This document shows positions 1,932 through 64,000 of a DNA stretch of 64,000 bases, in pieces. The notes beneath the pieces are model-generated. The model saw nothing but the letters and a program-made list of their open reading frames with translations, was not told the origin of the DNA and searched no databases. The translations under genes and the position numbers were made by a program. Each line of letters begins with the position of its first letter. Positions within the stretch are counted from its first letter, which is position 1. Source of the stretch: SAR86 cluster bacterium (lineage in GTDB: Bacteria > Pseudomonadota > Gammaproteobacteria > Magnimaribacterales > TMED112); the NCBI GenBank assembly GCA_003331605.1, contig QOPD01000003.1, positions 11,716-75,715 of the forward strand. Reading direction: 5' to 3'.

Positions 1932-2632
1932 TAAGCCTTTTTAAATTTATCCCAAAACAGAAATGGCAGATAAGTTATGAAAAAAACTATTAGAGCCAGT
2001 GGTGCGACACCTAGCATATGAAACGGTGGGTCTGGCATTAAATCCATTACAGATTCACCATCTGGTCTTTCCATCAAGTACCAATAATTTGCTTCACCGC
2101 CAATTAGAAAATTTATGCCATACATAGGAATCAGTAAAAAAATTGTAATTACTGCCATTTTAAGAAAATTTTCAAGTTGTGGCCGATATTTCAAAACAGC
2201 TAAGGCAAAAAATATTCCCAGCAATATTTGGTTATGACCATAAAAGAACATGAAGTACTCAATATCGGGCCATGCATAATCAAGGTCTGGTGTGAGAATG
2301 GCCATAGTAGCACCTCCTATTCCCCAATAGAAAGGAAGCTCAAAAAACATTTGATTTCTATCTTTGCTTAGTAAAAAAATACCAATTAGAACTGCACTAA
2401 AGTTGCACATATGAAGAGGTAGGTACTCTTCCCATGGTTTATCAAATCCGAAAATATAAATGAATGGTTTGGTTGCTTCAAAAACTAATAGTGAAAGTCC
2501 AATTGCTTTGGTTAATAAAGATTGTGAGCTGTTATTAGAAAAATTTGCAGCGACACAAATCGCGATAATTATTATCGTTGACCATATCAAAGTTTGCGTG
2601 TGCTGATCTCCAAAAAGTACAAATGGTTCCAT
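1931..2632 (-). CDS. TIGR02206/YwaF (TMEM164-like) integral membrane protein
   Basis: Multi-TM protein with LPLHMC, LTPDL, FFYGH and NYWYL motifs. Confidence 0.8.
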   Translation of the reverse strand: MEPFVLFGDQHTQTLIWSTIIIIAICVAANFSNNSSQSLLTKAIGLSLLVFEATKPFIYIFGFDKPWEEYLPLHMCNFSAVLIGIFLLSKDRNQMFFELPFYWGIGGATMAILTPDLDYAWPDIEYFMFFYGHNQILLGIFFALAVLKYRPQLENFLKMAVITIFLLIPMYGINFLIGGEANYWYLMERPDGESVMDLMPDPPFHMLGVAPLALIVFFITYLPFLFWDKFKKA

Positions 2633-2714
2633 ATACTCTCCCTTGTATTTACTAATCTAAATAATACAACTTGAGCTGCTAGAAGCAAAATATTATTCAG
2701 AAGCAGAGTATGAT

Positions 2715-3320
2715 TTAAGGATACTTAATTGAACAACCGTATGGCCTTGTTTTCTTATTTGTAATTTCTTTATTATCAGCAATGCTATTTATTGCTAAAC
2801 GTACATAATTTTTGGCCAAAGAAAGATCGGTGCTAAATAATGCTCCGGTCATTCCTAGATCGTCAATTGCACCATCGTATCTCAAGACCTCATTTTTATC
2901 GATGATATACATATGAGGAGTTGTTTTTGCATCATATTTTTTTCCTACCACTCCCTCTGTATCAAACAGTACATGTGTTGGAGAAGCATTTCTATTAGTA
3001 GTAAGCTTTATTGATTCTTGATTGGTTACATACCCCTGTTTATTCGGTGCTGAAGAGATAATGGAGAGCCATATAACATCATCTGCGGTATATTCTTTTT
3101 GCAATGATTGCATATTTTCTGTTTCATAATGTCTTTTTACAAAAGGGCATTCATGATTTGTCCACTCTAGAATGACGGTTTTACCAGAAAAATCACTCAA
3201 TGAAATCAATTCACCATATTCATTCTTTAACGTAAATCCTGGTGCAGTGTTATCAATCTTTGCAGAACTAAATAGTACTAAATTTAGTAAAAAAACGAAT
3301 AAAATCTTAAATTTCATCAA
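2715..3320 (-). CDS. Exported redoxin (AhpC/TSA-like thioredoxin fold)
   Basis: Signal peptide, APGFTL, LEWTNHECPFV, C-terminal YGCSIKY. Confidence 0.85.
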   Translation of the reverse strand: MMKFKILFVFLLNLVLFSSAKIDNTAPGFTLKNEYGELISLSDFSGKTVILEWTNHECPFVKRHYETENMQSLQKEYTADDVIWLSIISSAPNKQGYVTNQESIKLTTNRNASPTHVLFDTEGVVGKKYDAKTTPHMYIIDKNEVLRYDGAIDDLGMTGALFSTDLSLAKNYVRLAINSIADNKEITNKKTRPYGCSIKYP

Positions 3321-55575: not shown

Positions 55576-56565
55576 ATGATTAAAGTCGCAGTTGCTGGTG
55601 CAACAGGAGTAGTGGGCACATTACTAGCTAATTACTTAACTAAGGAAAATTTAGAGCTTGACCTCTATGCATCTGAGGCAAGTGTTGGAAAGACAGTTAA
55701 TATCAAAGGCAAAGAGTTTTCTCTTAAACCTTTAGTAGAGATTAATGACACCAAATATGACTATATTTTCTTAGCTATATCAGCGGAAAATACAAAAGCT
55801 CTTAAACGCAGCATCACTTATCCCACAAAATTTTTAGATTTATCTTCAGCCTATAGACAAGACCCTGATACACCTCTTTTACTGTATGGTGTTAATCATC
55901 AGGATTATTCCAACGAAAATTTTATCGCATTACCTAACTGTGTGGTTGCTCCTGTGGCCAAACCAATAAAAATTATCTCCAATGTTAATTTAGTTAAAAA
56001 TATATTTATATCAACTTATCAATCCATAAGCGGTGCAGGCCGAGAAAAAACACATAAGCTTTTAGATGACACAACTAAAGATCTAGAGGCTCTAAAAGCA
56101 CTGGAGAGTAAATTTGATTTTTCCGATAACTGTATAAATCAAATCAACTCATTCAATGTTGTTCCTGCTATAGATGATATTTATGCTGACGGTAGTACAG
56201 GTGAGGAAACTAAGATAAAAGATGAATTAAGTAAGATATTGAAACTTTCAGACGTCACAACAATAGCAACATGCGTAAGAGTCCCTGTTATTCGAGGACA
56301 TTGTGCCAGCATTAATATTGTTAGCAACGAAGCTATAAATCTTACAAATATAAAGGAGCAATTTTTAAACGATCCTGAGTTAAATTTTGACGACGGCGTA
56401 ATTCCATCTCCAAGACAAAATGGTAATTCTGAAGTGATTTCCATTGGTAGGCTCAGAGTTTTTCAAGATTCTCCAAATGTAATAAGTTTTTGGGTGGTGG
56501 GCGACAATCTTAATATTGGTGCGGCCGGGAATGCTTATCGAATTTTTAAATACATCAATGACTGA
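55576..56565 (+). CDS. asd: Aspartate-semialdehyde dehydrogenase
   Basis: GATGVVG, PNC, QSISGAG, RVPV..GH, DNL..GAA. Confidence 0.9.
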   Translation: MIKVAVAGATGVVGTLLANYLTKENLELDLYASEASVGKTVNIKGKEFSLKPLVEINDTKYDYIFLAISAENTKALKRSITYPTKFLDLSSAYRQDPDTPLLLYGVNHQDYSNENFIALPNCVVAPVAKPIKIISNVNLVKNIFISTYQSISGAGREKTHKLLDDTTKDLEALKALESKFDFSDNCINQINSFNVVPAIDDIYADGSTGEETKIKDELSKILKLSDVTTIATCVRVPVIRGHCASINIVSNEAINLTNIKEQFLNDPELNFDDGVIPSPRQNGNSEVISIGRLRVFQDSPNVISFWVVGDNLNIGAAGNAYRIFKYIND

Positions 56566-57772
56566 TCTGATCGTACAAAAATTTGGTGGAACTTCGGTTG
56601 CTAATTTAGACCGAATTGAAAAAATTGCTGAAATTATAAAATCCTCTGCAGAAATTAATAATGTAGTTGTGGTAATTTCAGCTATGGCCGGCGAGACCGA
56701 TAGGCTATTTAGCCTTGGTCAAAAATATTTTAACCAAGACAACATTCGTGAGATGGATGCGCTGCTTTCTACAGGTGAAGTTGTCAGCTCATCCTTGCTT
56801 GCAATGTGCCTATCAAGCTTAGGGCTTAAAGCCAAATCATTTAATGCTTCTCAGCTTAAACTAATGACCAAAAAAGATAGTTCAAATAAATTTGCAACGA
56901 TACTTTCAATTGATACAGCTTTGATAAAAAATGAAATTGCGCATGGTGTTATCCCTATAATTACTGGTTTTCAGGGTGTCGATGAAAAAGGAGATTTTAC
57001 AACCCTTGGTCGTGGTGGGTCGGATACCACAGCTGTGGCAGTAGCAGCTGAACTCAAGGCCAAAGAGTGCCAAATTTATACCGATGTCAAAGGGGTATTT
57101 TCTGCAGATCCAAATAAAGTGAATGATGCCAGAGTTTTGGAATATGTAACTTCTGAAGAAATGTTAGAGCTTTCAGGTCAAGGAGCAAAGGTACTAGCAT
57201 TGCGTTCGGTTGAGCTGGGCCATAAATATAAAGTACCAATTAAAGTCTTATCGAGCTTTGAGCAAAGCCAAGGGACAAAAATTATTTATAATGAGCCCAC
57301 AGATATGGAACAGTCAGTAGTTACAAGTATTACATCAGAACCTAACCAGGCCAAATTTACTATTTACGGGGGCAAGAGTGGTAATGATTTTTCCTCTTCC
57401 GTTCTAAATCTGATGGCACAAAAAAATATTTTTGTTGATGTTATTGTGATGAATTACGAGCTAAATGGAGCAATTGACTTTTCATTCACAGTGCAACAAG
57501 GTAATTCAGTTGAGGTTGAATCTATTCTTAAAGAAAATAAAGGCCAACTTTTTGATGATTATATTTCTGAATCAGATTTATCAAAAATTTCGGTAGTTGG
57601 TGTCGGCATGCGTTCACAAACAGGGGTGGCTAGTCGCGTTTTTAGTTGTCTAGAGGGCAGTAAGACGTCACTTAAACTTGTAAGCACATCTGAAATTAAA
57701 ATAACCTTGGTCCTTGAAAGCTCCTTAGAAAAAACGACTGTTGAATCCTTGCACAGAGAATTTTTTAAGTAA
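56558..57772 (+). CDS. lysC: Aspartate kinase
   Basis: VQKFGGTS, LGRGGSD, ACT domains. Start is the ATG at 56558. Confidence 0.95.
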   Translation: MTDLIVQKFGGTSVANLDRIEKIAEIIKSSAEINNVVVVISAMAGETDRLFSLGQKYFNQDNIREMDALLSTGEVVSSSLLAMCLSSLGLKAKSFNASQLKLMTKKDSSNKFATILSIDTALIKNEIAHGVIPIITGFQGVDEKGDFTTLGRGGSDTTAVAVAAELKAKECQIYTDVKGVFSADPNKVNDARVLEYVTSEEMLELSGQGAKVLALRSVELGHKYKVPIKVLSSFEQSQGTKIIYNEPTDMEQSVVTSITSEPNQAKFTIYGGKSGNDFSSSVLNLMAQKNIFVDVIVMNYELNGAIDFSFTVQQGNSVEVESILKENKGQLFDDYISESDLSKISVVGVGMRSQTGVASRVFSCLEGSKTSLKLVSTSEIKITLVLESSLEKTTVESLHREFFK

Positions 57773-59117
57773 ATTTCTGCTTTCTTTGATGCATTAACCT
57801 CTTAAAGAAACTTAGGTTAGATTCATTATTGTTAAGTTGTTCATCAACTGCTAAATCTTGAAAACCACTATCGGCTGGCAGCCAGGGTTTTGTTTTGGAA
57901 AAACCCAAGTTTTTGTCAGCTCCAATCCAGGGCATAGGGGTCCTGCAACCATCTCTTCCTTTAAACTCTGGCCAAAACCTTTTTCCAAATGGATCACGAA
58001 CATCAGCATAGTCCAATTCGCTTTCATTGAGGCCAAGCTCTTCTCCTTGGTAAATGCATACATTCCCCTTAAGCGAAAGTAGTTTAGCCATAAGTTCTTT
58101 TGGTGTTTTTATAGATCGTGAAGCAATACGAGTTGAATCATGATTACTAAATGCCCAACAAGGCCATGAATGTGGATTGGTTTTAAAAAAATTATCGACT
58201 ACATTATCGACGTAATCGTAATTAAATTCTTCAGATAAGAATTCAAAACTGTAGGCCATATGTAAACGATTTTCAGTGGTGTAGTCACCCATAACTTGGT
58301 TGAAGTTGTCTGCAACGATTTCTCCAACTGAAACAGCATTGTACTTATCAAGGAGGGCACGAATTTTTTGGAGGTAGGGCAGCATCTCAGGTCTTGAGTT
58401 ATCGTAGATGTGGTATTGCGTGCCATAAGGATTGTCCTTATTAAATCCTAGAGGTCTAATTTTTTCTGATTCTTTTGGTGGATTGTCTCTTAAGTTAGCA
58501 TCATGAAATAAAAAATTTATCACATCAAAACGAAAGCCATCAACACCCAAATTCAACCAATAATGTAATTCATCAAGCATTTGATTTTGAACTTCAGGAT
58601 TATGGAAATTTAAATCTGCCTGTTGTTCTAAAAAGTTGTGTAGATAGTAGGCTTGTCTCTTTTCAGACCATTTCCATGCGGATCCACCGAATACCGATAA
58701 CCAATTGTTGGGTTCTGAATCATTTAATCCATCAGCCCAAACATACCAGTCACTATAATCATTTTTCTTGGCGGAATTGCTACGTAGAAACCACTCGTGA
58801 TGTGTAGAGGTATGGCTTAGAACTAAATCAATCATAATCTTTAAGTTCTTTTTCTTAAAAACCTCTACAAGCTCAAGAAAATCTTTGTTGCTTCCAAATA
58901 GTGGGTCAACAGTTCGATAGTCTTGAACGTCATAGCCATAGTCGAATTGTGGCGACTTAAAGAAAGGTGAGATCCATACGTAGTCTACGCCAAGATCTTT
59001 AATATAATCAGCTTTATTAATAATGCCTCTTAGATCTCCAACCCCATTGCCAGATGTGTCGCAAAAACTTCTGGGGTAGATTTGATAAATAACCTTATTT
59101 TTCCAATTGTCAGCCAT
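57765..59117 (-). CDS. GH13 alpha-glucosidase
   Basis: YQIYPRSF, catalytic FRFDVIN / VGE / NHD, GRDGCRTPM. The ATG at 59117 is the likely start. Confidence 0.92.
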   Translation of the reverse strand: MADNWKNKVIYQIYPRSFCDTSGNGVGDLRGIINKADYIKDLGVDYVWISPFFKSPQFDYGYDVQDYRTVDPLFGSNKDFLELVEVFKKKNLKIMIDLVLSHTSTHHEWFLRSNSAKKNDYSDWYVWADGLNDSEPNNWLSVFGGSAWKWSEKRQAYYLHNFLEQQADLNFHNPEVQNQMLDELHYWLNLGVDGFRFDVINFLFHDANLRDNPPKESEKIRPLGFNKDNPYGTQYHIYDNSRPEMLPYLQKIRALLDKYNAVSVGEIVADNFNQVMGDYTTENRLHMAYSFEFLSEEFNYDYVDNVVDNFFKTNPHSWPCWAFSNHDSTRIASRSIKTPKELMAKLLSLKGNVCIYQGEELGLNESELDYADVRDPFGKRFWPEFKGRDGCRTPMPWIGADKNLGFSKTKPWLPADSGFQDLAVDEQLNNNESNLSFFKRLMHQRKQKFT

Positions 59118-59247
59118 AATGCACAAATTTTTTTATTTCATTAAATTTTTTTGGTAATTAATTTGAAAAAATCATGTAAATATTGCCAAAATGTCACAAA
59201 AGGACTGATTTCATTGCTTTTTGTAAATTTAATCATATCATAAACAC

Positions 59248-59324
59248 GGCCTTAAAGATGTTGATTAGTGGCTTAGTTTTTTCGACATTCCTCCTGAGCT
59301 GCTAAGATTTTTAAGGCTTTTTTT
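59248..59324 (+). ncRNA. Candidate small RNA / structured leader
   Basis: Nested 10-bp and 12-bp stems with G-U pairs, pyrimidine-rich anti-SD loop, U7 tail, upstream TTGCTT-16-TATCAT. Confidence 0.55.
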
Positions 59325-59382
59325 CAAATTTTTAAATCCTTACCAAACTTTATTTTATATAATTTACTATTCGGAGAGGACA

Positions 59383-60312
59383 TTGACCAATAATAAATTA
59401 TTACTTGATTTAGGAGGAACTAATTTAAGAATTGGCTATGGTGATCAAGAGAATCTTTCAATAGACAAAATCACTAAAATCAAGATATCAAATGACAGTG
59501 AAATCCTTGCAATTATAAAGAAACAATTAGCTGAAAGGCCAGCCAATGAAATTATATTTTCCGCTGCAGGCCCAAAAAGTGGCAATTCAATTGTAATGAC
59601 AAACAGATCATTGAATCTAGATGGTGCTGAACTTTCATCATCCTTGGATGTAGACAGCTGTTACATGCTTAATGATTGGGAATCTATAGGGTATTGTTTG
59701 CCTTTACTGCATGATAGCGACCTTGTATCTATTAAATCTGGAGATAGAAATACCAACCAAACTAGTTTAGCAGTAGGTCCAGGTACTGGACTTGGATTCT
59801 CTATTTTAAGATACATTAATCAGGTTCCTTATGTGTTTGCAACTGAGCTGGGCAACGCTAAAAGTTTCAATAATTATTTGCGTGAAGTTTTTGAAATTGG
59901 TGATCAAAATAATTTCCCTGTGCTTGAGAGTTTTTTATCAGGAAAGGGCATTACCAAGATATATCAAGCTAAATCTGGGCTAATCAAAACATCTGAGGAA
60001 ATCGTAGATAGTTATGGCAGCGATGATCTTGCAACTGATATGTTAAATAATTTTGGTAAGTCTATGGGCAGAGTGTTAGCTGATTTAAGCTTAACTTCAA
60101 TGGCGACAGGAGGCATATATTTTGCTGGAAGTCTAATGAGAGTTCTTTCGCAGCTTGATGTTATTACTGCGTTAAAAGATGAATTTGATGATCATGTATC
60201 AGAACATCATCAAAGTATACTAAAAAATATTTCTATAAATTTAATTACCAAACCACATACGCCCTTGTATGGGAACTTAAATTATTCAATCGTAAGGAGG
60301 CTACATGAATAG
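59383..60312 (+). CDS. glk: Glucokinase
   Basis: DLGGTN, LND, GPGTGLG; TTG start with GGAGAGG SD. Confidence 0.88.
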   Translation: MTNNKLLLDLGGTNLRIGYGDQENLSIDKITKIKISNDSEILAIIKKQLAERPANEIIFSAAGPKSGNSIVMTNRSLNLDGAELSSSLDVDSCYMLNDWESIGYCLPLLHDSDLVSIKSGDRNTNQTSLAVGPGTGLGFSILRYINQVPYVFATELGNAKSFNNYLREVFEIGDQNNFPVLESFLSGKGITKIYQAKSGLIKTSEEIVDSYGSDDLATDMLNNFGKSMGRVLADLSLTSMATGGIYFAGSLMRVLSQLDVITALKDEFDDHVSEHHQSILKNISINLITKPHTPLYGNLNYSIVRRLHE

Positions 60313-61915
60313 TTTGGATTACACTATCGTTGGAATCTATGCAGTTGCATTAATTGCTATCGCAACATTTATTTCTCTCAATAAGTCAGGAGAGAAGAAA
60401 ACAGCTGAAGATTACTTCTTAGCTGGTCGCTCCTTACCATGGTGGGCTATTGGAACATCTTTAATTGCCGCAAATATTGCTGCAGATCAGATTATTGGCA
60501 TGAATGGAGATGCTTATGCTATGGGTATTGCCATTGCAACATATGAATGGACTGCTGCTATAGCTTTGATAGTTGTGGGTAAATTTTTGCTTCCCGTCTA
60601 TTTAAAACAGAAGGTTTTTACAATGCCTCAACTTCTGTCCCAAAGATACGATCAAACTGTAAGCATAATGTTGGCCATCTTAATGTTGATAATGTATGTA
60701 ATGGTCATTTTGCCAACCATACTTTGGTTGGGTGCGAAAGCGGTAAACAATCTTACAGGACTTGAGCTCATTCCAGCAATGATTCTACTCGGATTGTTAT
60801 CACTGGCTTACTCTTTGTATGGCGGTCTGAAGGCAGTGGCTTTTACAGATATTATACAAGTGACACTATTAATATTTGCTGGTCTTTTTGTTTCCTATGT
60901 TGGGCTAAATGCGATATCAGATGGTGCTGGAGTGGTAGAAGGCTTCATGATTCTGCAAAGTGAATTTCCTGAAAAGTTTGATGCTTTATTGCCTTATGCA
61001 TCGCAATCTGAAAACCCTGAAGCATATGGTAATTATGTTAGATTGCCAGGTATATGGGTTCTGATTGGTGGTATGTGGATAGCACACTTTTATTATTGGG
61101 GAACAAACCAATACATCACTCAAAGAGCTTTGGGCGGCAAAAGCTTAAACGAAGCTCAGAATGGCTTAATGTTTGCTGGTTTTTTAAAGCTTTTAATGCC
61201 TGTAGTTGTTGTTTTGCCAGGTTTAATCGCGGTATCGCTTGAAGGGAGTGCCATACCATCTCTTGAAGGAGATAGATCCAGAGCATATCCTTCAATGCTT
61301 TCATTGCTACCAAATGGAATCTTAGGGCTTACTTTTGCTGCATTGGTTGCAGCCATAGTTTCTTCTCTTGCCTCATTAACTAACAGTTTAAGTACAATCT
61401 TCACTATGGATATTTATAGAAATTACAACGATGTTGGTGATGATCAACTGGTAGGAGTTGGTAGAAAAGTTGGTTTAGTTGGTCTCGCAATATCTATATT
61501 TGTTGCACCTATTTTTCTTGGTAGTTTAGATTCTGCTTTCCAATACGTTCAAGAATATATGGGATTGTTTAGTCCCGTAATCTTATTTGTCTTTCTTTCA
61601 GCAATATTTTTCAAAAATTCCACTTCGAGATCAGTATTATGGGGTTCACTTGTTGCATTAGTGGCTGGAGTTGTCCTTAAGCTCTATGTGGCAAACACAC
61701 AAGAATCATTAATTGAACCGTTTATGCACCAAATGGCAATTTCATTTTTTCTTGCTTTTGTTGTCAGTGCAATATTGTCTCCATCAAGTGAAAATGCTAA
61801 AACATTTAAATTAGAAGCTAGTGATTTTCAAACATCCAAATTATTCAATGTTGGCTCAAGTTTAATACTAATAGTGATTGCTGGTATCTACATTTATTTT
61901 GATGGCTCGTTTTAA
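60305..61915 (+). CDS. Sodium:sugar symporter (SSS, vSGLT-like)
   Basis: YFLAGRSLPWW, YGGLKAVAFTD, NQYITQR. Confidence 0.92.
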   Translation: MNSLDYTIVGIYAVALIAIATFISLNKSGEKKTAEDYFLAGRSLPWWAIGTSLIAANIAADQIIGMNGDAYAMGIAIATYEWTAAIALIVVGKFLLPVYLKQKVFTMPQLLSQRYDQTVSIMLAILMLIMYVMVILPTILWLGAKAVNNLTGLELIPAMILLGLLSLAYSLYGGLKAVAFTDIIQVTLLIFAGLFVSYVGLNAISDGAGVVEGFMILQSEFPEKFDALLPYASQSENPEAYGNYVRLPGIWVLIGGMWIAHFYYWGTNQYITQRALGGKSLNEAQNGLMFAGFLKLLMPVVVVLPGLIAVSLEGSAIPSLEGDRSRAYPSMLSLLPNGILGLTFAALVAAIVSSLASLTNSLSTIFTMDIYRNYNDVGDDQLVGVGRKVGLVGLAISIFVAPIFLGSLDSAFQYVQEYMGLFSPVILFVFLSAIFFKNSTSRSVLWGSLVALVAGVVLKLYVANTQESLIEPFMHQMAISFFLAFVVSAILSPSSENAKTFKLEASDFQTSKLFNVGSSLILIVIAGIYIYFDGSF

Positions 61916-61936: not shown

Positions 61937-64000
61937 ATGAAAAAAATCTTTGCTTTACTGTTTTTGCTCCAAATCTCAATAGCCTCCGAGGTTAATTGGG
62001 ACCGACCCAATTTTTGCCCTACAGGCGATATTGCCGAAGTCGAAAAAATTCTTCAATCAATGACAATTGAAGAAAAAGTTGGTCAGGTAATCATGGCAGA
62101 CTTGGATTTTGTTGTGCCATCCGATTTAAAAAAATACCCATTGGGAGGTATATTGAATGGTGGCAATACTTCTCCTCGCGGAAAATTAAAATCCACTCCA
62201 GCTGAATGGAAATCACTGGCCCAAGAATTTCACGATGTCTCAACAAATCGTGGTGGAGCCGAAATTCCTGTTTTATGGGGAACTGATGCGGTGCACGGCC
62301 ACAGCAATGTCATTGGAGCAACAATTTTTCCTCATAATATTGGTTTGGGAGCAACACAAAATACGGAATTATTGGAGTTGGTCGGTGCTGCTGTAGCTGA
62401 AGAGGTATTGGCTACAGGGCTATTTTGGACATTTGCTCCTACGGTTACTGTTCCACAAGATTATCGTTGGGGACGAACCTATGAAGGATATTCTGAAAGC
62501 CCAGAATTAGTAGCAAAATTAGGCAAAGCATTTGTTTATGGTTTGCAAGGGTCTGGCGATGAGTTCCTTGCTGAAAATCGAATTATTGGCACAGCAAAAC
62601 ATTTTCTCGGTGATGGGGGTACTTTTTTAGGAGTTGATCAAGGAGACACAAAAACAGATGAAGATTCATTAAGGTATGTTCACGGCACCTCTTACTTCGC
62701 TGCACTTGATGCCTGTGTGCAAACAGTGATGGCTAGCTTCAATTCATGGAATGGTTCTAAGCTGCATGGCAATGATTACCTTCTGACCGAAGTGCTAAAA
62801 AATAAAATGGAGTTTGATGGTTTTGTTGTAGGTGACTGGAATGGTCATGGGCAAGTTCCAGGGTGTTCGAATGCCAATTGTGCCGCTTCGTTTAACGCAG
62901 GCGTTGATATGTTTATGGTTCCTGAGGATTGGAAGGATTTATATAGAAATACCCTTAGACAAGCAAAGAACGGCGAGATAACTCAGGAGAGGCTTGATGA
63001 TGCTGTAAGACGTATTTTGCTAGTTAAAGAAAGAATGGGAATGTTCGATGGCCGACAACCTAAGGACACAAATTTCACAGAAGTTGGATTGCAAAAGAAT
63101 CGTGATGTATCTCGCCAAGCAGTAAGAGAGTCTCTAGTTCTGTTAAAAAACAATAACAACATATTACCCATCTCAAGAAGCGCTAAGATTCTAGTGGTTG
63201 GTAGTGACGCTGACTCTTTAAGAACACAAACTGGAGGTTGGACTCTTGACTGGCAAGGCGCAAATAATAACAATGATGATTTTCCAGGCAGCATTACTTT
63301 CTTGCAGGCTTTAAAAGAAATTACCCAAGGAAATGTTGATTATGTGGAAAATATCAGTTCTGTCAGCAAGTTTGACTACGACATTGCCATTGTTGCATAT
63401 GGAGAGCAGCCTTATGCAGAAGGAGTAGGCGATAGAAAGAATTTATCTTTTAACAGAACAGCGCAAATAGGTGCCCTATCATTATTAAAAGAGAAGGGTG
63501 TGCCAACGGTATCATTGTTTTTTTCCGGACGACCTCTATGGATGACAAGGGAAATCAACTTGTCAAACGCATTTGTAGCTGCTTGGTTGCCTGGAACAGA
63601 ATCTAGAGGAATGACAGACGTGTTGTTTATGAACGATATCGATGAAGTCAACTACGATATTAAAGGTAGGCTACCATTCAGTTGGCCTAAAACACCTTTT
63701 CAAGCAAATTTAAATTACTTTGATCCAGCCAGCGATCCCTTATTTGCTTTTGGTTATGGATTAAGTTACCAAGATAATGTTGAAGTGCCTTTATTTGATG
63801 AGAATGTTGATGAAGAACAGTTTTTTGGCAACGAAATTGATCTTTTGATTGGCTCGGTCACGGATAGATTTATTGGCTACATTCAAGAAAATAATCTGGC
63901 TCAAGTTCAGGTTGAAAACCAAACAAGCTCACAAAATTCATTGGTTACAACTGACTTAATAGATTCAGACAAACAAGACGATACATTAAGACTTGTTTTC
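61937..64000 (+). CDS. Exported GH3 beta-glucosidase / exo-beta-glucanase, runs off the window
   Basis: Not in the ORF track. MKKIFALL signal, EEKVGQ, DAVHGH, FPHNIGLGA, KHFLGDG, nucleophile VGDW, WLPG. Confidence 0.93.
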   Translation, partial: MKKIFALLFLLQISIASEVNWDRPNFCPTGDIAEVEKILQSMTIEEKVGQVIMADLDFVVPSDLKKYPLGGILNGGNTSPRGKLKSTPAEWKSLAQEFHDVSTNRGGAEIPVLWGTDAVHGHSNVIGATIFPHNIGLGATQNTELLELVGAAVAEEVLATGLFWTFAPTVTVPQDYRWGRTYEGYSESPELVAKLGKAFVYGLQGSGDEFLAENRIIGTAKHFLGDGGTFLGVDQGDTKTDEDSLRYVHGTSYFAALDACVQTVMASFNSWNGSKLHGNDYLLTEVLKNKMEFDGFVVGDWNGHGQVPGCSNANCAASFNAGVDMFMVPEDWKDLYRNTLRQAKNGEITQERLDDAVRRILLVKERMGMFDGRQPKDTNFTEVGLQKNRDVSRQAVRESLVLLKNNNNILPISRSAKILVVGSDADSLRTQTGGWTLDWQGANNNNDDFPGSITFLQALKEITQGNVDYVENISSVSKFDYDIAIVAYGEQPYAEGVGDRKNLSFNRTAQIGALSLLKEKGVPTVSLFFSGRPLWMTREINLSNAFVAAWLPGTESRGMTDVLFMNDIDEVNYDIKGRLPFSWPKTPFQANLNYFDPASDPLFAFGYGLSYQDNVEVPLFDENVDEEQFFGNEIDLLIGSVTDRFIGYIQENNLAQVQVENQTSSQNSLVTTDLIDSDKQDDTLRLVF

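Follow-up and report, generated by a model that had tools for sequence, protein, structure and literature searches.

What kind of element is the long hairpin that lies in the 265-nucleotide (nt) spacer between the divergent genes for a GH13 enzyme of the alpha-amylase family and for glucokinase (glk) in a SAR86 cluster bacterium, and on which strand does it work? The window considered here is the whole 64,000-nt stretch of contig QOPD01000003.1 (assembly GCA_003331605.1), and all positions are those of the window. The initial annotation had described a hairpin with an anti-Shine-Dalgarno (anti-SD) loop, followed by a run of seven U and preceded by promoter-like hexamers, and its coordinates for the stems, loop, U7 run, promoter hexamers, complements and open reading frame (ORF) all agree with the sequence. 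Given the conservation, fold and setting described below, we put at about 0.5 the probability that the element is a stand-alone, Hfq-independent small RNA (sRNA) gene on the + strand that acts in trans; a young, lineage-restricted sRNA gene is what the element would most simply be. Its parts are the following.

59214..59241, + strand: promoter-like signal P1, consisting of TTGCTT (59214-59219), a 16-nt spacer and TATCAT (59236-59241), with the hairpin base 7 nt downstream
59248..59324, + strand: predicted 77-nt RNA, one long interrupted hairpin plus U7
59248-59259/59307-59318, + strand: outer stem, with its core at 59249-59258/59308-59317 and an extra G-U pair at 59248/59318
59260-59264 and 59306, + strand: internal loop of the predicted fold
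59265-59276/59294-59305, + strand: inner stem of the predicted fold
59277-59293, + strand: apical loop of 17 nt; UUUUUUCGACAUUCCUC spans 59277..59295, i.e., the loop running into the CU of the stem
59288-59295, + strand: anti-SD-like UUCCUCCU, read in the sequence
59318-59324, + strand: U7 run, read in the sequence

A hairpin under selection

Read on the + strand, the 77-nt RNA has a predicted folding energy of -25.1 kcal/mol and a z-score of -4.33, with none of 200 shuffled sequences folding equally well. The anti-SD-like UUCCUCCU is partly engaged in this fold, in that UUCCUC lies within the loop and the closing C and U of the motif are taken up by the inner stem as its first two pairs. The element belongs to no family in Rfam 15. 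A search of positions 58900-59700 with E values up to 10 returned four noise matches of 12-18 bits, of which the only one overlapping the element was to sR18, an archaeal snoRNA model, scoring 12.2 bits where the gathering score is 45; no riboswitch model matched at the locus, and at gathering scores the whole window plus the remaining contig yielded tRNAs only. The check for known RNA families and repeats that the initial annotation had asked for thus left the element as it was, single-copy and without a family or repeat match.

Two related species, G010 and G028, carry homologues, and it is the comparison of this genome (G000) with them that points to selection on the hairpin. Between this genome and G028, whose glucokinases share 73% protein identity, 64 of the 79 columns of the hairpin and U-tail are identical (81%). 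For the flanking spacer the figure is 54 of 113 (48%; one-sided Fisher p 2e-6 versus the hairpin; 59118-59205 and 59326-59349 were compared), and for the four-fold degenerate sites of glk 31 of 76 (41%; p 2e-7). The same order holds in the comparison with G010, where the hairpin has 74 of 79 columns identical, the spacer 91 of 113 (p 0.007) and the four-fold sites of glk 79 of 107 (p 0.0003). The conserved block has sharp edges, which fall at 59248, the first base of the stem, and at 59325, just past the U run, and the most variable columns of a seven-sequence alignment are the 6-7 nt before the block and the 6 nt after it. Within the apical loop, 16 of the 17 positions are identical in both G010 and G028; by itself, this loop identity is not above what the hairpin's overall 81% would lead one to expect from three lineages.

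The alignment, guided by a covariance model, holds seven sequences, six of them distinct, from three lineages. Standard pairs fill 98.6% of its 144 pair cells and two cells are broken, against 31-66% standard pairs if the partners are slid by one to three columns. In two pairs both partners have changed, from A-U to G-C and from G-U to U-A, and four pairs differ in one partner, by a switch between G-U and Watson-Crick pairing; each of these changes keeps the stems, which is the outcome that the covariation check of the initial annotation had looked for. We take these changes as positive evidence, of low power, that the structure of the hairpin is under purifying selection.

The same comparison bears on an ORF of 15 aa (59258-59305) inside the hairpin, encoding MLISGLVFSTFLLSC, for which a leader peptide or dual-function RNA had been considered. 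All seven sequences have its ATG at 59258, and the peptide is hydrophobic. There is, however, no Shine-Dalgarno (SD) sequence, and the ATG, 10 nt into the predicted RNA, is part of the stem. Of the four base changes relative to G010, three alter a residue (L6S, V7A and C15Y), so that 3 of the 15 residues differ, and in G028 a one-base insertion removes the stop codon and lets the frame continue past the terminator. A coding role for this ORF is thus extremely improbable. We likewise rejected a 40-aa ORF at 59183-59305, which meets an early stop in G010, and a 7-aa ORF on the - strand behind an SD-like complement of the loop, the length of which varies among the relatives.

As a separate observation, the stretch 59190-59201 (AATGTCACAAAA), upstream of P1, complements the 5' half of the apical loop (59278-59289) at 83% of its positions. 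This complementarity of AATGTCACAAAA to the loop is partly kept in G010 and not in G028.

Strand and promoter-like signals

A hairpin conserved as DNA might work through either strand, and the initial annotation had noted that several G-U pairs form on the + strand only. In this genome the contrast is strong, the - strand of the same 77 nt folding at -11.7 kcal/mol (z -1.05). It weakens in the relatives, where the energies are -28.3 kcal/mol (G010) and -24.0 kcal/mol (G028) on the + strand and -24.8 and -20.1 kcal/mol on the - strand. Each of the three species has its more stable fold on the + strand, with z-scores against shuffles of -4.3, -5.2 and -4.4 for G000, G010 and G028, and the big contrast is confined to this genome. 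The three stem substitutions between this genome and G010 are all G-U pairs on the + strand and would be C-A on the - strand, and 17 of the 144 pair cells are G-U or U-G on the + strand. Furthermore, all seven sequences have a run of U7-U8 after the GC-rich base of the stem, an arrangement that is meaningful on the + strand only and therefore argues for that strand. From the sequences, the + strand is well supported as the transcribed one, though short of proof.

These data also allow us to weigh the reading in which the working form is an RNA of the - strand (part of a leader of the GH13 mRNA) or else the DNA, as an inverted repeat to which a regulator of the divergent promoters would bind. 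In its favor, the - strand folds of G010 and G028 have z-scores of -4.8 and -2.9, and a promoter-like TCAACA-16-TATGAT on the - strand overlaps the 5' arm. Nevertheless, the - strand fold collapses in this genome while the + strand fold is kept, the G-U and U-G cells of the + strand become C-A on the other strand, and the conserved U run would be of use on the + strand only. No regulator gene stands beside the locus among the ORFs scanned. The arms of usual operators are also unlike those of the element, which are 17 and 46 bp apart. As such, we regard a - strand or DNA-level function as improbable.

P1 is found in all seven homologous sequences, always with a -35 of TTG(C/A)TT, a -10 of TATCAT and a spacing of 16 nt, and both the stretch between the hexamers and the 6-7 nt between the -10 and the stem base vary among them. 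Since P1 matches the consensus poorly and was not reported by a consensus promoter scan, the argument for it rests on the conservation of hexamers and spacing. Of the sigma70-like promoter that the initial annotation had placed here, the hexamers and their distance are kept in seven of seven sequences, and its likeness to the consensus is partial.

Downstream of the element, two further signals belong to glk.

59358-59363, + strand: TATAAT, the -10 of glk, 34 nt past the U run
59373-59380, + strand: GGAGAGGA, the SD sequence of glk

Among 25 loci of the genus, 21, with the three carriers among them, have an exact TATAAT that begins 25-34 nt ahead of the glk start, and three more have TATACT. 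With its own TATAAT whether or not the element is present, glk appears to have its own promoter and a leader of about 13 nt. Since this -10 lies downstream of the element, a role of the hairpin as a glk leader or attenuator is unlikely, which weakens the earlier suggestion of an attenuator for glk, the symporter gene and the GH3 gene behind it.

A narrow distribution in a conserved gene order

A BLAST search of the spacer against 60 relatives found two true homologues, in G010 (88% identity over all 303 nt) and in G028 (77%), and the match in G028 starts exactly at the hairpin. A covariance model built on the sequences of this genome and G010 identified carriers in these three species only (3 of 30 genomes of the genus), and it had no match in 121 genomes from three other families of the order. 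Exact matches to the 19-mer of the loop were found at five loci in genome contigs, two of them true (G010 and G028) and three due to chance, as the model rejects them, and at seven loci in metagenome contigs, four true, close to G000 and G010, and three due to chance; viral contigs had none. Two weak matches to the model, G013:C6 (E 0.0014) and G000:C1 (E 0.08), were dropped solely because they read as coding sequence. The element is single-copy, with one in this genome and one strong match per carrier, and given this and the lack of a viral match to the loop we rejected a repeat or mobile element.

The genes around the hairpin are far more widespread. Twenty-four of the 30 genomes of the genus have glk, with the GH13 neighbor in 24 of 25 loci and the symporter gene 3' of glk in all 25. 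The three carriers have GH13/glk spacers of 265-268 nt; those of three other loci are 156-158 nt long and those of another 18 loci 67-107 nt. None of the 21 non-carrier loci of the genus has a comparable hairpin before a T run (G027, without a GH13 neighbor, was excluded). In two other families, glk abuts the preceding gene without a spacer in the 21 loci examined; 23 had been fetched, of which L084 and L093 were excluded as contig-end fragments. Such a narrow distribution in an otherwise conserved gene order indicates that the element is a lineage-specific addition.

One could see in this addition a non-functional remnant, either what is left of an insertion or a terminator whose gene has been lost, and its presence in 3 of 30 species, its one copy per genome and a 12-nt perfect inverted repeat flanking the module in this genome would fit that view. 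However, the element is 81% identical where neighboring spacer and synonymous sites are 41-49% identical, its stems show compensatory changes, and the flanking repeat is lost in G028. We consider a remnant very improbable.

The flanking inverted repeat merits a description of its own. Its 12-nt arms (59160-59171/59319-59330) bracket P1 and the hairpin, and a 19-nt extension of it (59150-59168/59329-59347) matches at 74%. The repeat is weaker in G010 and absent in G028. It is probably due to chance in AT-rich DNA, a decayed insertion end being also conceivable. Another observation concerns the three loci with spacers of 156-158 nt (L040, L041 and L061, in G011 and G004), in which a common block, without relation to the hairpin, precedes the -10; this block may be another lineage-specific element at the same spot in G011 and G004.

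Contigs from RNA libraries

Of 23 runs listed, 18 are recorded as RNA libraries, and four were compared, all as unstranded contigs. RNA-library contigs span the hairpin in two of the four runs, both from one study, and extend over 58933-59323 and 59114-59341. The contig that starts inside the GH13 gene stops at 59323, one base short of the end of the U run, and both contigs connect without a break to the 5' end of GH13. Contigs of glk start at 59393, 59396 and 59419 in three runs. We gave no weight to the contig gap at 59342-59392 in runs X1 and X2, since the gap is very rich in A and T and contigs cannot serve as proof of absence. With such contiguity to the left, a GH13 leader could run across the element, or + strand transcription coming from the left could end at the hairpin.

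The first of these possibilities leads to a cis-antisense reading, in which the GH13 mRNA would start to the right of the hairpin, its long leader would be fully complementary to the element, and the + strand RNA would control GH13. Besides the unbroken link from the 5' end of GH13 to 59323 and 59341, this reading could draw on a conserved TTTTATATAAT box, common to the glk promoter, that would read as a -10 on both strands, and perfect complementarity would need no chaperone, in keeping with the missing Hfq and ProQ. Against it, the contigs are unstranded and possibly derive from DNA, and the consensus scan found no - strand promoter to the right of the hairpin, its sole - strand match (59264-59237) lying inside the element. 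In G010, moreover, the GH13 frame is split and yet the hairpin is intact. Antisense control of GH13 is, on balance, doubtful.

A terminator or a small RNA gene

The second possibility, transcription from the left that ends at the hairpin, whether it comes from P1 or from farther away, would make the element a cis-acting terminator, serving either as an insulator that leaves glk, the symporter and GH3 genes to their own promoter or as a conditional attenuator. The hairpin and U7 have the shape of an intrinsic terminator and stand 34 nt before the -10 of glk, the contig that originates in GH13 ends one base before the end of the U run, and the T-rich tail could act as an upstream A/T element of the glk promoter. 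We surveyed the 220 spacers of at least 35 nt in the genome for terminators. The ordinary ones follow genes and consist of GC-rich stems of 7-9 bp, loops of 3-5 nt and T6-T8. The hairpin shares with these intrinsic terminators a GC-rich stem base that passes directly into the U run, and it ranks seventh by energy in the survey, with 24 pairs, an internal loop and the 17-nt apical loop.

Because of these 24 pairs and the 17-nt loop, and because no co-directional gene precedes it, the hairpin differs from a plain terminator. The genome's plain ones need a stem of only 7-9 bp, which leaves the extra pairs and the conserved loop unexplained. No co-directional gene lies in the spacer, and lysC, the nearest gene on the + strand, has its own weak terminator-like site within GH13, at 57885-57906 on the + strand. 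The 21 other loci of the genus do without the element, 18 of them with spacers of 67-107 nt. As for a conditional attenuator, an RNA that begins at the foot of the stem would have no upstream partner for antitermination, and a six-frame search of the genome found no CAT_RBD domain of the BglG/SacY-type antiterminators. A terminator function is therefore possible but, in our judgment, unlikely.

The genome has two further strong sites of a hairpin plus T run, at C4 around 194650-194740 (+) and at C7 around 32700 (-), in divergent spacers of 319 and 500 nt without a co-directional gene upstream. They are possibly riboswitch platforms, or else additional orphan RNA units.

Proposed mode of action and predicted targets

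Under the sRNA reading, transcription would begin from P1 at about G59248 and stop at the U run ending at 59324, and the product, an RNA of 77 nt, would begin its pairing at the 5' end and carry a 17-nt apical loop. Six-frame searches of the genome found no Hfq, ProQ or CsrA, and the RNA would for this reason be expected to act through its open loop without a chaperone. Most likely, the CCUCC and U-rich parts of the loop would pair with ribosome-binding regions and block translation. We infer the start at P1, termination at the U run, action in trans and the class of targets, and likewise, from the anatomy of the hairpin, the mode of action.

To what extent does the loop single out targets? 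Against 926 crudely called start regions, 168 of which have the four-base SD core, the best pairing of the loop reached -20.4 kcal/mol and the tenth best -16.2 kcal/mol, with 87 sites at or below -12 kcal/mol. The top three predicted sites have the form SD-AUG-A-rich and are starts of genes for small proteins whose N-termini are hydrophobic, rich in Lys and signal-peptide-like, and we regard these as leads only.

The genes of the locus do not stand out as targets, contrary to what had been proposed. Ranked by their pairing with the loop, the starts of the symporter, glk, GH3 and GH13 genes come at places 102, 154, 319 and 427 among the 926. Of the two local complements pointed out in the initial annotation, AAGGAGG does lie at the symporter start (60294-60300). 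The other, AGGAGGAA early in glk (59412-59419), is merely the codons of the invariant DLGGTN motif of glucokinase and reads GGGTGGGA in G028.

A number of findings weigh against a trans-acting sRNA and keep its probability at about one half. First, the predicted pairing of the loop is no better than that of 30 shuffled loops (means of -19.9 kcal/mol for the best site, -16.2 kcal/mol for the tenth and 99.9 sites), and the exact 10-12-nt complements in the genome lie inside or antisense to called coding ORFs, with one in an uncalled stretch and none at a called gene start. The anti-SD sequence of the host is itself assumed, as a search of the assembly with two short motifs found no 3' end of the 16S rRNA. 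Second, P1 fits the sigma-70 consensus at 8 of 12 positions in this genome and 9 of 12 in the relatives, and matches of its grade are common in AT-rich DNA (6 found versus 11.7 expected in shuffles). Third, 11 of 500 column shuffles match the observed covariation, which comes from only three lineages and six distinct sequences, with both double compensations from G028, and in G010 and G028 the - strand folds almost equally well. Lastly, the RNA-library contigs cross the predicted start leftward, which a lone 77-nt RNA would not explain; they are also without strand, and DNA carry-over is possible. Of the ~77-nt RNA acting in trans on AGGAGG sites that the initial annotation proposed, then, a structured, selected unit of the + strand with promoter-like hexamers and a predicted terminator remains, whereas the pairing that was to give it targets is no better than that of shuffled loops.

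Comparison with known RNAs

RNAs with C-rich or SD-pairing loops are known from several bacteria. RsaE/RoxS and the hairpins of RNAIII in Firmicutes have C-rich loops, and ChiX of enterobacteria, which depends on Hfq, pairs with an SD in a sugar-utilisation circuit. The element resembles all of them in its pyrimidine-rich loop suited to SD pairing, and ChiX also in its link to sugars. In contrast to these RNAs, it has no similarity to them by sequence or covariance model, and Hfq was not found in the genome.

Among RNAs with anti-SD motifs in hairpin loops, the best described are, according to passages of PMC10746234, the alpha-r14/NfeR1 sRNAs of Alphaproteobacteria. As is predicted for the element, these passages describe a stand-alone gene whose hairpin offers an anti-SD of the CCUCC type in an unpaired region, and occlusion of the ribosome-binding site is proposed (PMC10746234). 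The alpha-r14/NfeR1 RNAs as described there consist of three hairpins, each with an identical CCUCCUCCC, are class-wide and have tested targets (PMC10746234). The element, unlike them, has one hairpin with the motif partly in the stem, is found in three species, and has no enriched target and no Rfam match.

A non-coding RNA of the glucose region of SAR86 reportedly goes back to Shi et al. (2009). According to passages of Dupont et al. 2012 (PMC3358033), an abundant non-coding RNA lies in the "glycolysis and glucose uptake" region of SAR86 and is common to two divergent genomes, which these authors read as a sign that carbon assimilation is under RNA-based control. Like that RNA as it is described there, the element would be a small RNA among genes for glucose uptake and glycolysis in a streamlined marine gammaproteobacterium (PMC3358033). 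However, where that RNA is common to two divergent SAR86 genomes (PMC3358033), the element is found in 3 of 30 genomes of the genus and in none of the 121 searched from other families. Judged by occurrence, this narrow distribution argues that the element is probably a different RNA. The titles and abstracts of the literature on small or non-coding RNAs of SAR86 and on psRNA gave no other paper pointing to such an element, and a term search of the psRNA review PMC13414033 met no mention of SAR86 in the text covered.

Streamlined marine bacteria possess few regulatory proteins and are believed to depend on RNA-based control. To our knowledge, very few sRNA genes of uncultured lineages have been tied to a locus with evidence of selection. 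A small, sharply bounded element at a locus for glucose uptake and glycan hydrolases, in a genome without a detected Hfq, ProQ or CsrA, makes a compact test case, both for riboregulation without chaperones and for the birth of young sRNAs, and the claim is a modest one, that of a predicted RNA in three species. A bolder version, for which we see a slim chance, would have a recently born, chaperone-independent RNA in one of the smallest free-living genomes, its loop a copy of the anti-SD that ties the GH13/glk locus to mRNAs with strong SD sequences, or else an antisense to the GH13 leader. If this were true, a regulator-poor, streamlined genome would gain control over carbon from some 110-190 nt of extra spacer.

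Neighboring genes and further observations

The genome is of 0.94 Mb and is rated 97.5% complete. The genes next to the element were assigned as follows.

57765..59117, - strand: GH13 (alpha-amylase family) gene, divergent from glk (Pfam Alpha-amylase, 6.7e-115)
59383..60312, + strand: glucokinase gene glk, with a TTG start (Pfam Glucokinase, 8.3e-38)
60305..61915, + strand: sodium:solute symporter gene, overlapping the end of glk (Pfam SSF, 6.2e-57)
61937..64000, + strand: GH3 glycoside hydrolase gene, continuing past the window (Pfam Glyco_hydro_3, 4.1e-74, and Glyco_hydro_3_C, 1.8e-30)

The GH13 protein falls under all NCBIfam equivalog cut-offs. At a length of at least 250 nt, a spacer such as that between GH13 and glk is within the 30 longest of 919 gaps by crude ORF calling, the median gap being about 0. 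At the other end of GH13, the convergent aspartokinase ORF (56516-57772, +) overlaps it by 8 nt at the 3' ends (57765-57772), without a spacer.

The GH13 homologue of G010 is represented by two overlapping ORFs (1797-2441 and 2419-3054 of locus L003) of 214 and 211 aa, and tblastn reaches residues 1-219 only in one frame. The split is either a frameshift, making a pseudogene, or an assembly error, and the adjoining hairpin is intact.

The N-terminus of glucokinase, LLLDLGGTNLR, is kept throughout the genus. Its first codon is one for Leu, an apparent TTG start, in 23 of the 25 loci surveyed in the genus (L037-L061), where an SD sequence of the GGAG or GGGGA type precedes it, and for a start other than ATG this conservation is unusually strong.

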